DNA from: Candidatus Marinacidobacterales bacterium
Lineage (GTDB): Bacteria > Acidobacteriota > Vicinamibacteria > Marinacidobacterales > DATDRI01
Direction of reading: 5' to 3'
Assembly (NCBI GenBank): GCA_965219415.1
Contig: CBDCNP010000002.1
Span: 4,032,001-4,096,000, forward strand
DNA length: 64,000 bases
Shown here: one piece after another, positions 60,412 to 64,000 of the stretch
Layout: each line of letters begins with the position of its first letter
Position numbering within the stretch: position 1 is the first letter of the stretch
The notes under the pieces: generated by a model
What the model was told of the DNA's origin: nothing
Databases searched by the model: none
Seen by the model: only the letters and a program-made list of their open reading frames with translations
Program-made: the position numbers and the translations under genes

Positions 60412-60675
60412 TTAGGATTTGCGGATAGACCGCTCGATCACGGAACGATGCTCCTGCCAGTCTGGCTCCACGCCCTTTTCGCGTTTGTCGCACGCAGCGA
60501 AGAACGCTCGCAAGCCCTTGACGGTGGTCAATTGCAGGCGACGCTCCTGAACCGCGAGTCTCTCCCGGCCCGCTTCTCGCAACCACGCACTCAATGGGAT
60601 CCCCTCCAGAGCGGCCGCCTCCCGAAAAAGCTCTCTCTCCTCATCGTCCAGGATCAGTTGAACCCTGCTAGCCAT
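60412..60675 (-). CDS. RHH/CopG-like putative antitoxin, orphan
   Basis: RVQLIL..EERELFREAA..EGIPLSAWLREA; AGGAG RBS. Confidence 0.6.
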   Translation of the reverse strand: MASRVQLILDDEERELFREAAALEGIPLSAWLREAGRERLAVQERRLQLTTVKGLRAFFAACDKREKGVEPDWQEHRSVIERSIRKS

Positions 60676-60779: not shown

Positions 60780-61505
60780 CTAGAGGGGCTGAAAGGTGGC
60801 TCTTACCCAGGCGTAGTAAACGCTGGTGATCGACTCGAAACCAGAATCGGTGCCGACGAAGAGCCATACGGCTCCCGAGCCGTCCGCGGTCACCTCGATC
60901 TCCTCCGAGTCGCTCGCGAGTTGCTTGAGCTCCCATTGTGGCGGTTCGCCGCAAGGGATCGAGTTCGCCACGTCGCCAATCGCAAGGGCGTCCTCACCAC
61001 CGTTCGTCTGCAGCCCTTTGTTCACATTCGTGAGCCAGAACCCGCCTTCGTCCATCCGGGTGGGTTCGACTTCGGAGGCCCCCGCCTTCACGGTCACGCC
61101 CTCGCCGGTAGCTCCACCCACACCGATGCATCCGTTCGGAACCGACGTGGCGAACTCCACACCAAAACTGAACCCGATAGCGCGTGTCGGGGGCGAGAGT
61201 CCGGCGATCTGCCCTTTGTAGTACATCCACAGGTCGTCGCTCCGGTTTACCCCGGAAATAAATAGGCCGTTACCGGACCCGCTCAAAGGCTCGGGAAGAG
61301 CGCGGTAGTCGGTAACGAGCTGGTAGAACTCGTCCTCCCCAACCGGATAGTCGGCGAAATCGCCTACCCATCCTCGGTCGGTCTGGCGAAAGTCGAGCGC
61401 GACGGTGATCGCCTCTTCCTCGGAGCAGGCGGTGCTCGCGGCGGCGAGAAAAAGCATGACGCCTAGGAGGCGGCGAGAGCGAAACTTCGCTGCTTGTTTT
61501 GTCAT
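60780..61505 (-). CDS. Hypothetical lipoprotein
   Basis: STAC lipobox after a hydrophobic stretch; WVGDFADYP, NRSDDL. Confidence 0.75.
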   Translation of the reverse strand: MTKQAAKFRSRRLLGVMLFLAAASTACSEEEAITVALDFRQTDRGWVGDFADYPVGEDEFYQLVTDYRALPEPLSGSGNGLFISGVNRSDDLWMYYKGQIAGLSPPTRAIGFSFGVEFATSVPNGCIGVGGATGEGVTVKAGASEVEPTRMDEGGFWLTNVNKGLQTNGGEDALAIGDVANSIPCGEPPQWELKQLASDSEEIEVTADGSGAVWLFVGTDSGFESITSVYYAWVRATFQPL

Positions 61506-61543
61506 GAGGGCGGTTGGCTGGGTGGGTCCGTCCCTGAGACTCT

Positions 61544-63070
61544 CTATCGCTCTTGTGGGGGCTCGCCCCGACGTCTCTCGATTCGTTCTACCATCTCCTC
61601 GAGCTCCACGCCGTCGATACAACCGTCATGGTTGGAGTCCATCCGGTCAAATCGTCCTCTCATTCTTTCGGGAAGTTCGTCTTGGCGAACGCAGCCGTCA
61701 CCGTCTTGGTCTCTCTCCAGAAGTCGCCGCACAAAAGCTTCGCTCGCCATCCCGCCGAATCGACTCTCCATGCGTTCTCGCTCATCCGCATCGATGAAAC
61801 CGTCTCCGTTCTCGTCAATCCTCTCGAAGAGGCGCCCCAGGCGCTCGGGAAGCTCGTCGCGGCTGACGCGCCCATCCCCGTTCAGATCGCTGTTCGAAAG
61901 CGTCTCCGCGAAGCCCCCGGTACCGCGGTCCGTCCACCCTGTGCGACGTCGCCCTCCGTCAGGATCTCTTTTCAAATAGATCTTGTATTGCTGGGTGACG
62001 GGAATGCAGTAGGTCTCGGCATCGTCGCAAGCGAAGTAGAAGACCTTAGCTTGAATGGGTGCATCGGTTGAATCAGGATCGAGCTCGAACAAGAACTCGC
62101 GCGGATCACTGTCTGCTTCTACTTCGAGCTTCGGAGCATCGCCCGTTGTTTGACTCGCCACTGCCCCGTCCGGGAGGTCCAGCTCGAATCGCAATGGAGT
62201 GACGAGGTTATTCCAATGAACCTCATAGACCGGATCGATATGGAAGCCAAGATAGAGCTTTCCCGCCTCCCCATGAAGTACGTCTCGATCCGCCTCGGCG
62301 CGTAGCTTCACATAAAACGGTGCACCCTTTTCGGTAATGACCGGCTCCACTTTGAGGGCCTGCAGTCCCATCGGCACTTCCAGCCGCGGCACGACTCCCT
62401 TGGCCGCCGCCTTGCGCGGCGGGAGCGCTTTCATATCCAGATCCTCGACCGATGTCGGATTTTCAACGGGTCCAACAAGTCTCGCTAGGTCCTCACGGAG
62501 TTTTTCGGGATCGCTCCACCAGCGCTTGTTCGCCAACTTGCCGTCCGCATCGAAAATGAACTCGGGGTTCGAAGCATCACCAAGGGCATGCTTGAGATCG
62601 TTCGACATCGTGTCGCAGATCCACGGGATCTCTGACCCCAGCCTTCGCTTTGCCTCCTGAACGTGCATGAGCCTTTCTTCTAACGTAAAGGGCGTCACAT
62701 ATCCATAGAGTGCGGGATGCGCGAGCGCCTTGTAGATGTAGTAAAACTTCACGCCCATGGGGGCGTAATCGCTGAATACCGTCTCCAGACCGGGGACGTT
62801 CCTGAGGAACGGCGGTCAGGTGAGGCAGCCGAACACGAGAACGGAATAATGGCCTTCCAGGCTGCTGAGTTTGAACTCGCGGCCTTCAGCGTCGTACGCG
62901 GAGAGGTCGGGCAAGGGCTCGCCGATGGCGGGACTCGCGGCTTCAAACTTCGCTTCCAAGGCCTGACGGTCCCAGCCGGGCGAATCCTCGTCATGATTGT
63001 GGGTTTGTGCGAAGCTCGCCGCCACCACTGCCAAATAGAGAGCAATACCAAGTGAGCTCTTCCAAAGCAT
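61544..63070 (-). CDS. Exported deiodinase-like thioredoxin-fold selenoprotein (CLTU) with C-terminal EF-hands; UGA at 62816-62818
   Basis: ORFs 62816..63142 and 61544..62758 are in frame, joined by LVFGCLT-U-PPFLRNV..YIYKALAHP; four DxxxDG EF-hand loops. Confidence 0.88.
62780..62798 (-). promoter_or_regulatory. Putative bacterial SECIS hairpin
   Basis: CGUCCCC-GGUCU-GGAGACG; the loop starts with GG 24 nt after the UGA. Confidence 0.6.
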
Positions 63071-63181
63071 TTCTTGAACTCCTTGCGATGGTCCTGATAC
63101 CTGTCTCGCTGTCCCTCTAAGGCTGTTGGTTTTCACTTTCACGATACATCCTAATCCGTTAGACCGCCCAAGTCATCCACT

Positions 63182-63511
63182 TTGAATCGACCTCTGGCGC
63201 GCACGACGGTGGAGGAGCTGGCGAGCCCGTCCGTCCGGAGTGCGCGGATCTGCAAGAATAAACTCGCGGCGCTCATGCCGGGTGCCGACCTCGCTTCCAT
63301 GATCGAAGCGTCCGTGACGGAGAAACTCGAACGGCTCGAGGCCAGGCGCCTCGGCAAAGTCAAGAATCCGAGAAAGAGCCTCGAAGATGCCGACACGTCG
63401 CCGGGAGGGCGCGGAATTCCCGCTCCGGTGAAGCGCATCGTGTGGGCGCGCGATCAGGGGCAGTGCACGTTACCCGTCGTTTCTACTCTTTCCGGACGGA
63501 GCTCAAGATAG
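63182..63511 (+). pseudogene. Fragment of an HNH endonuclease-family gene
   Basis: IPAPVKRIVWARDQGQCT, then breaks off before the HNH motif. Confidence 0.6.
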
Positions 63512-63680
63512 TGAGCTCCGGTTGAGAGGCCTCGTCGTTCGCACCGGCGACTTTGATCATCAAGAAACGATCGCCGCTGGGAGACACGTCATAGGTGCGA
63601 CCGGGGGGACCGCTAACAGTGGATGATCGGTTCGTCGTTCGAGCACGCGATGCCGCCGCTCGATAGAAATAGTACGACGC

Positions 63681-64000
63681 TCAGAAGATGATGCGACGGG
63701 AACTTCGCCACGTGCTTTGTCGTGAGCCCGAAATATGACAAAGGAACCGAATGTACGTTTCGATGCCTCGAAAGAAGTTCGGTAGGTGGAGTTTTTCGTT
63801 CGGTCCGTGGATCCCGTCGGTGGGCATGGCGAAACCCAGGAGCACCAGCTCGGAGGCGAGCCTACTTTGCAGCAAACCGACGACGGGCACGCTTCCGCCT
63901 TCCCTTCTGTGGATTGGCGGAACCCCCCAGACTTCTTCCAGGGACCGAGCCGCGGCCCGTATGACACTCGACTCGAGGTTTACCTCGGATGCTGGCGCGT
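63681..64000 (-). CDS. M20 dipeptidase C-terminus (partial)
   Basis: REGGSVPVV..LLGF..IHGPNEK. Confidence 0.8.
   Translation of the reverse strand, partial: APASEVNLESSVIRAAARSLEEVWGVPPIHRREGGSVPVVGLLQSRLASELVLLGFAMPTDGIHGPNEKLHLPNFFRGIETYIRFLCHISGSRQSTWRSSRRIIF

Follow-up and report, generated by a model that had tools for sequence, protein, structure and literature searches.

Does a TGA codon that splits a gene-sized reading frame in two mark the end of a short peptide, or is it read as selenocysteine (Sec), and if it is read through, what would the resulting protein do? The question is raised by a locus at positions 61544 to 63070 of the minus strand in a 64,000-nt stretch of DNA (hereafter the window) from Candidatus Marinacidobacterales bacterium (contig CBDCNP010000002.1, positions 4,032,001 to 4,096,000). 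We are close to certain that this is a genuine Sec-decoding gene of a published family that joins a deiodinase-like domain to EF-hands, with selenium incorporation itself predicted from comparative sequence evidence. What the findings below show or strongly support is a single exported selenoprotein whose Sec occupies the nucleophile position of a thioredoxin fold, with a Cys three residues before it and a second, invariant Cys pair in a fused Ig-like domain. Most likely, it is a selenol/thiol oxidoreductase that acts after export, with an internal relay that leads from its Cys pair to its CxxU site; substrate and direction are predictions only.

The TGA codon and its setting

Positions 63070 to 61544 of the minus strand form a single frame of 508 codons closed by a TAG stop (61546–61544), with one in-frame TGA (62818–62816) inside FGCLT-U-PPF (U, Sec). 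The list of open reading frames (ORFs) holds this gene as two entries in the same phase, one of 108 codons (62816–63142, minus strand) that ends ...VFGCLT at the TGA and one of 404 aa (61544–62758, minus strand). Translation of 63142–61544 with TGA as U gives an uninterrupted product with exactly one non-standard step, which bears out the original prediction, made from the sequence alone, that the two ORFs are one frame across a single TGA. Translation probably begins with the ATG at 63070, 8 nt past a Shine-Dalgarno-like AAGGAG (63079–63084, minus strand, read from the sequence). Counted from this ATG, the product has 508 residues, among them Cys82 (codon 62825–62827; invariant in our alignment A5), Sec85 (62816–62818), His118, Cys348 and Cys355, and the motifs first noticed (FGCLT-U-PPF, YIYKALAHP, CDDAETYC and four EF-hand loops) are all present. 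Residues 1–22 (MLWKSSLGIALYLAVVAASFAQ; 63005–63070, minus strand) are a hydrophobic stretch ending in AQ, and the relatives likewise start hydrophobic and end in A-Q; judged by eye, this looks like a putative signal peptide of the Sec export type.

The genome has one copy of the gene, and as had been predicted, gene callers have split it: the protein database entry is the 404-aa back half only (P0002). Such annotation is what a true stop would give, as would an error or a pseudogene lesion, leaving two products, a peptide of 84 residues and an EF-hand protein of 404. The ATG at 62758 could start that second frame, and most listed homologues are annotated in the same truncated way. No RNA run was listed among 22 sequencing runs.

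A scan taking one genome per species gave 28 loci, from which we dropped one (L040, Streptomyces, E-value 7e-4) that matched through its EF-hands only. In all 27 others, the TGA stands in frame within C(L/M)(T/I)-TGA-P. The gene was found in 13 of 301 sampled genomes of the window's phylum counting its own genome (12 of 300 without it), and the site is covered at 12 places in other genomes of the phylum, 11 times with TGA and once with TCA (Ser). The TGA also appears in one metagenome locus and in a second phylum sample, where 2 of 301 genomes have it. The TCA locus (L053, G055:C7:448561-449580), which counts in favor of a true stop, is one base off TGA and retains the downstream hairpin (GGTCTCC-CGGGT-GGAGACC); Sec may recently have given way to Ser there, or the difference may stem from base calling or assembly. 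One sampled genome (G112) carries two gene copies (L048 and L059) with the same scores and the same Sec-codon region.

Among proteins, a word-index search returned 994 matches at E ≤ 1e-3 among 7,999 scored, of which 120 were listed. Seven of those listed span position 85, all seven with Cys (GCLT-C-P); 109 start no more than 27 residues past the site, one starts later and three are irregular. Starts just after the Sec codon are expected if gene callers restarted after the "stop". A second search, of representatives of 50% clusters, gave 7,154 matches at E ≤ 1e-3, 1,082 at ≤ 1e-10 and 206 at ≤ 1e-30; 54 of the 147 examined span the site, with Cys in 37, Asp in 10, Thr, Asn and Ala in two each, and Glu in one. 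The CxxC homologues that the original prediction had proposed to look for therefore exist, both in the listed matches (7/7) and in the representatives that cover the site (37/54). The locus has what identifies a bacterial selenoprotein at this level, an in-frame UGA at a conserved site with Cys in homologues.

Lack of read support for the TGA had been named as a ground for rejecting the Sec reading, and what we find is agreement: contigs of four runs from four studies cover 62816–62818 with no difference listed there. The counts of other letters for these contigs are 0 (X1 record 1), 1 (X4 record 9), 2 (X7 record 18) and 1 (X9 record 30), and one of the four runs (X1 record 1) may be the source of the window DNA itself. 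The TGA is more than chance or error, and is not an assembly slip. In all four runs, many contigs otherwise unlike the window align to it solely at 62780–62833, the Sec codon plus hairpin, with 85–90% identity. This UGA-plus-hairpin segment is the family's most conserved DNA, and several family members coexist in those samples.

The hairpin resembles a bacterial selenocysteine insertion sequence (SECIS) element and lies at 62798–62780 (minus strand), where a 7-bp stem (CGUCCCC/GGAGACG, with one C·A mismatch) carries the 5-nt loop GGUCU; the loop begins 24 nt past the TGA, where the original prediction had placed it. The whole element spans 17–36 nt after the UGA, with columns 21–27 pairing with 33–39, counted from the T of TGA. 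It is kept in 38 of 38 sequences, with standard pairs in 90.2% of 266 cells; pairing falls to 35–53% when the 3′ partner is slid by 1–3 columns, and none of 500 shuffles reaches 90.2%. Across these 38 sequences, pair 24–36 is CG in 31, UA in four and UG in three, and is never unpaired, pair 21–39 is CG in 15, GC in nine, AU, UA and UG in one each and unpaired in 11, and loop position 29 is always G. The stem persists despite a change of the encoded peptide from PGL/SSL to SRV/SRM. The gene thus has the further hallmark of a bacterial selenoprotein, a hairpin close behind the UGA whose small apical loop carries a conserved G. The minimum-energy fold of the window RNA alone forms CGUUCC/GGAACG pairs, not the GGUCU-loop hairpin, and a scan of 61000–64000 against Rfam at E ≤ 10 found no family.

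Absence of the Sec machinery from the genome would likewise have spoken against the prediction. We find the machinery complete, with a tRNA-Sec (69.7 bits; called SeC with anticodon tca by ARAGORN), SelA (476 bits), SelB (58.5 bits, wing-3 domain) and SelD (328 bits). The SelD gene (L061, G000:C3:3889655-3890587) has one in-frame TGA of its own, so SelD is probably a selenoprotein here too. A short thioredoxin-like frame with one TGA (L044, G000:C3:3107647-3107874), a weak match to the N-terminal part of our query (E 7.7e-4, 33% identity), may be a second selenoprotein of this fold.

These results leave very little room for a true stop or lesion, which we regard as extremely improbable: the TGA holds the same codon in 27/27, in 11/12 and in one further locus, full-length homologues have Cys there, the frame and the thioredoxin fold (residues 45–200) run on across it, the hairpin is conserved, the decoding machinery is complete, and contigs of four studies contain the codon.

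The deiodinase-like domain

The Sec codon lies in a domain of residues ∼45–200 (62471–62938, minus strand) that is identified as a deiodinase-like thioredoxin fold by Pfam, NCBIfam, PDB profile and Foldseek matches. In Pfam, the AhpC-TSA match (29.6 bits, over half of the profile) passes its cut-off of 26, as the profile search suggested at the outset was meant to find, and Redoxin scores 20.6 bits. The T4_deiodinase part of that suggestion came out divided, the window protein scoring 19.0 bits against a cut-off of 27 while some relatives pass: a match is found in 26 of 55 relatives, including P0188 (30.7 bits) and P0122 (29.8 bits). NCBIfam NF038285 (deiodinase_rel) gives 68 bits, below its cut-off of 250, and is aligned over profile positions 174–323 of 347 only.

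A profile built from 17 sequences of the domain has as its two best PDB matches ResA (4nmu, E 1.1e-8) and mouse Dio3 (4tr3, E 4e-8). In the Dio3 alignment, fGcltCPPf falls on FGSCT(Sec→Cys)PPF, vykalaHPe on IYIEEAHPS, leer on LEDR and cDTMen on LDTMAN, with Sec85 on mouse Sec170, so the original placement of the UGA at the catalytic Sec position of deiodinases holds. In the ResA alignment, the two Cys of CxxC are matched by Sec85 and Phe88, in that order, and the partner Cys82 lies three residues upstream of Sec85. Together, the two alignments place Sec85 at the canonical nucleophile position, the N-terminus of the first helix. Thioredoxins have their nucleophilic Cys at this position, peroxiredoxins their peroxidatic Cys and deiodinases their Sec.

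An AlphaFold model of the whole protein (mean predicted local distance difference test, pLDDT, 88.4; predicted template modeling score 0.77) has the thioredoxin fold at pLDDT >90. With the whole model as query, the top Foldseek match was the C-terminal two-domain unit of Mycobacterium tuberculosis DipZ (E 8.4e-11), with a root-mean-square deviation (rmsd) of 13–15. ResA entries gave template modeling (TM) scores of 0.84–0.87 (rmsd 2.3–2.9), followed by mouse Dio2 (0.73) and Dio3 (0.69) over 172–174 columns.

Is the enzyme then a dehalogenase, with Sec85 reductively removing halogen from iodinated or brominated phenolics in the periplasm, perhaps under Ca2+ control? The motifs shared with Dio3 (FGxxTUPPF, Y-x4-H-P, LE(E/D)R and DTMxN) exceed what the generic fold would give, T4_deiodinase matches recur among the relatives, and fusions to an arylsulfotransferase (in one Cys-form relative) and to a feruloyl-esterase-type hydrolase (in one Sec-form relative) involve enzymes that act on phenolics. 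The Sec-containing motif that defines PF00837, FGS(C/A)TUPxF on a thioredoxin fold, is likewise found, even though the Pfam score stays below cut-off. The loop-D of that family, with its Glu/His/Trp/His relay and substrate residues, is not. Among the deiodinase residues named in the available text of PMC11592359, only the equivalents of Thr84, Tyr113 and His118 (Dio3 His202) are kept; those of Dio2 Glu160, Trp167 and His182 are absent because loop-D is eight residues shorter, with Leu at the Glu position. ResA-type oxidoreductases score equally well, thiol chemistry accords with the fusion to a Cys-pair domain and with the large number of CxxC homologues, and the authors who described bacterial deiodinase-like selenoproteins in 2005 expected, in the text available to us, a redox role and not hormone deiodination (PMC1088965). 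We therefore consider dehalogenation unlikely. A redox enzyme that uses its CxxU site is, in turn, a very probable reading of the domain, the activity itself being predicted.

The Cys-pair domain and a predicted relay

Between the thioredoxin fold and the EF-hands lies an Ig-like β-sandwich of residues ∼235–372 (61955–62368, minus strand), modeled separately at pLDDT 93.8. Over 55 sequences, its invariant residues are Lys255, Trp286-Asn287-Asn288 (within an HWNN motif), Phe326, Tyr345, Cys348 and Cys355. The last two form the C348-x6-C355 pair (CDDAETYC; 62006–62029, minus strand) at the turn between strands 339–349 and 355–368. We consider the domain probably DsbD-N-like. It has the structural features of PF11412, an Ig-like sandwich with two close Cys near a C-terminal hairpin. 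DsbD_N (PF11412) is matched in 9 of 55 relatives at E ≤ 0.01, the P0104 match covering profile positions 16–115 of 119 and, at 25.8 bits, just passing the cut-off of 25. Foldseek with the middle domain as query, which gave matches only at E > 1e-3, returned several DsbD-alpha entries at E 5e-3 to 1.5e-2, and a VIA-align superposition on DsbD-alpha 1jpe has Z 6.5 and rmsd 3.5 over 100 residues. In the genome's true DsbD_N proteins, the final motif is Y-Q-x-C-x-D-x-x-C, much like the Y-F-A-C-D-D-A-E-T-Y-C of the middle domain.

The same domain is found once more in the genome. A 372-aa protein (L043:1498-2616, minus strand; G000:C3, near 1393911) consists of a thioredoxin-like region, a helical middle and a C-terminal domain with HWNN...YYVCEDVNGVC, which shares the HWNN...C-x6-C pattern and aligns to our middle domain with an hhalign probability of 95.9%. 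The Cys-pair domain thus recurs with redox partners in this genome. As the Cys pair of a domain of its own, which is probably DsbD-N-like, CDDAETYC points to a thiol/selenol electron relay.

The mechanism that we favor would run as follows. UGA-85 would be decoded as selenocysteine with the help of the hairpin starting 17 nt downstream and of SelA, SelB, SelD and tRNA-Sec. After export, Sec85 would attack an oxidized substrate (a peroxide, sulfenic acid or disulfide) and Cys82 would resolve the intermediate, giving a selenenyl-sulfide that Cys348/Cys355 of the fused DsbD-N-like domain would re-reduce. Electrons to recharge the Cys pair could come from outside, for example from the only CcdA/DsbD-type membrane protein of the genome, whose DsbD_TM gene is unlinked, on another contig. 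The four EF-hands would bind Ca2+ as a structural or regulatory tail, which relatives swap for other domains. Peroxide or disulfide reduction seems the most likely substrate reaction. We judge this explanation as a whole to be probable, and its more specific element, a reductive relay through the Cys pair, to be a tentative proposal that may well turn out otherwise. Of the periplasmic, possibly Ca2+-regulated redox or dehalogenating enzyme that was originally proposed, the putative signal peptide, the EF-hands and thiol/selenol redox chemistry are retained here; dehalogenation finds no evidence in this analysis, the loop-D Glu, Trp and second His not being kept and the Cys-pair domain pointing to a relay.

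Several observations weigh against this explanation or parts of it. At the level of the Sec codon, Asp occupies the position in the 10 site-covering representatives counted above, often as GDLTDP, so not all relatives are redox-active, and the Asp forms are, from their sequences, likely redox-dead. A Cys form is missing at the DNA level: a metagenome scan with the Cys-form protein P0029 gave one full locus, again of the Sec form, and the phylum samples contained TGA forms and one TCA form but no Cys form. In the hairpin, double changes occur in only 2 of 7 pairs, and because the element lies within coding sequence, part of its conservation reflects protein constraint. The peroxiredoxin motif PxxxTxxC/U, as stated in the available text of PMC13188914, is absent, with Cys82 at position −3 and Leu in place of Pro at −7. 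For the middle domain, Pfam found no DsbD_N match in the window protein at E ≤ 1, the domain profile found no PDB sequence at E ≤ 10, and the alignment to one true DsbD_N protein by hhalign has a probability of just 6%. The structural match to 1jpe ranks 16th, its Z tied with those of many unrelated Ig-like folds. Finally, ORF clustering of 27 loci plus the window found no widely shared neighbor beyond the gene and its shadow frames, and a linked DsbD/CcdA gene was found at none of 28 loci.

The fusions formed by the core suggest another role for the CxxU and Cys-pair domains, that of an oxidative-folding or isomerase module that forms or shuffles disulfides in exported proteins, the domains fused to it included, with no oxidant reduction. 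Distant relatives (P0135, P0157, P0138, P0203 and P0207; L021 and L024) have the CxxC/CxxU core joined to assorted domains, and its partners include arylsulfotransferase, DUF3179, YHYH, Lcl_C, beta-helix/PMP repeats, and a BD-FAE esterase with a PQQ-like propeller. A folding module would suit this variety of unrelated exported domains, as it would the TlpA/ResA-like fold, and arylsulfotransferase in E. coli needs a dedicated Dsb pair. Yet TlpA/ResA and DsbD-alpha systems act reductively, Sec is favored in nucleophilic, reductive catalysis, and the window protein has no client domain, only EF-hands. We would give this role only a minor chance beside the oxidoreductase reading with its internal relay.

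The EF-hand tail, neighborhood and place in the family

Residues 389–500 contain four EF-hands (Pfam EF-hand_7, 4.4e-15), whose canonical loops at residues 395–406, 419–430, 454–465 and 478–489 (61604–61888, minus strand) follow the pattern D-x-[DNS]-x-[DNS]-G-x-[ILV]-x3-[DE]. This C-terminal tail is variable, as relatives in the Planctomycetota have another C-terminal domain or N-terminal EF-hands. The neighbors in the window, a lipoprotein-like 241-aa ORF, an FG-GAP protein and an M28 peptidase, suggest no functional link, and one large downstream gene is common to just seven closely related loci. The 241-aa ORF (60780–61505, minus strand), which begins ∼40 nt past the selenoprotein stop and has a lipoprotein-like ..LFLAAASTAC start, has no Pfam match and is not conserved beside the gene in other loci. 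Further along, an 87-aa ORF (60412–60675, minus strand) weakly resembles antitoxins, its matches to DUF6290 (23.1 bits) and TacA1 (18.5 bits) both falling short of their cut-offs.

In 2005, Zhang, Fomenko and Gladyshev described deiodinase-like selenoproteins of bacteria in the Sargasso Sea, together with Cys homologues and SECIS elements of the bacterial type (PMC1088965). As far as the available text of that paper goes, the window protein agrees with these proteins in having Sec and Cys forms, a SECIS element downstream of the UGA and an expected redox role. A fusion selenoprotein of the deiodinase-like/EF-hand kind was published in 2021 (PMC9402790), and its reported features, a deiodinase-like Sec domain, an EF-hand pair (Pfam13499) and an extra conserved Cys, are all in the window protein; the text available to us names no DsbD-N-like domain, the comparison being by description only. 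That paper was the only one that a full-text literature search for selenoprotein, EF-hand and deiodinase-like returned, and the literature searches made found no experimental study of the family. A 2026 review lists "Deiodinase-like protein, PF00837, UxxC" among 119 families (PMC13188914, Table 1). Its motif differs from the C-x-x-U with Phe at +3 seen here, so by the review's own rule, as given in the part available, the window protein may count as a distinct subfamily. The gene is a member of a known, uncharacterized family that annotation has missed here; the kind of system is not new.

With Dio1–3 (PF00837; 4tr3 and 9h48), the window protein shares the thioredoxin/peroxiredoxin-like fold (TM 0.69–0.73), the Sec position in FGxxTUPPF, and the conserved Thr at −1, Tyr, His-Pro, LE(D/E)R and DTMxN, whereas it has a putative signal peptide in place of a membrane anchor, Cys82 in place of the relay Ser, an extra Cys-pair domain and EF-hands, and a loop-D eight residues shorter; a thyronine substrate is not expected. 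With the DsbD/DipZ/ScsB relays (1jpe and 2hyx), it shares a thioredoxin-like domain plus a β-sandwich with two close Cys on a hairpin, but it has no membrane domain, the domain order is reversed, its redox motif includes Sec and the signal for DsbD_N is weak. TlpA/ResA proteins are the best structural match of the single domain, by TM score as by profile E-value, and are set apart by their C-x-x-C at the helix N-terminus, which is not found here: the second Cys of ResA falls on Phe88, and the partner Cys of the window protein comes three residues before Sec.

What this analysis adds to the published family are counts at the DNA level, covariation in the hairpin, fold models and the interpretation of the middle domain as DsbD-N-like. 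Public protein sets hold the family almost only as truncated "EF-hand domain-containing protein" entries, and since ∼109 of the 120 nearest listed entries start just after the Sec codon, the catalytic domain is systematically lost from annotation. The family is nonetheless widespread in uncultured bacteria, as the 206 cluster representatives at E ≤ 1e-30 and its presence in 12 of 300 other sampled genomes of the phylum indicate. A bolder reading, which we put forward as speculation with little chance of being right, is that the core of CxxU and DsbD-N-like domains is a self-contained selenium-based extracytoplasmic redox cassette, and that the EF-hand form is a Ca2+-gated reductive dehalogenase, or a peroxidase of halogenated or phenolic marine compounds; if true, this would make the core, bolted onto many exported domains, the functional ancestor of the animal deiodinases. 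The family is the nearest bacterial relative of the thyroid-hormone deiodinases, and it bears both on the role of the deiodinase fold outside animals and on how an exported Sec enzyme may be recycled through a DsbD-like domain.

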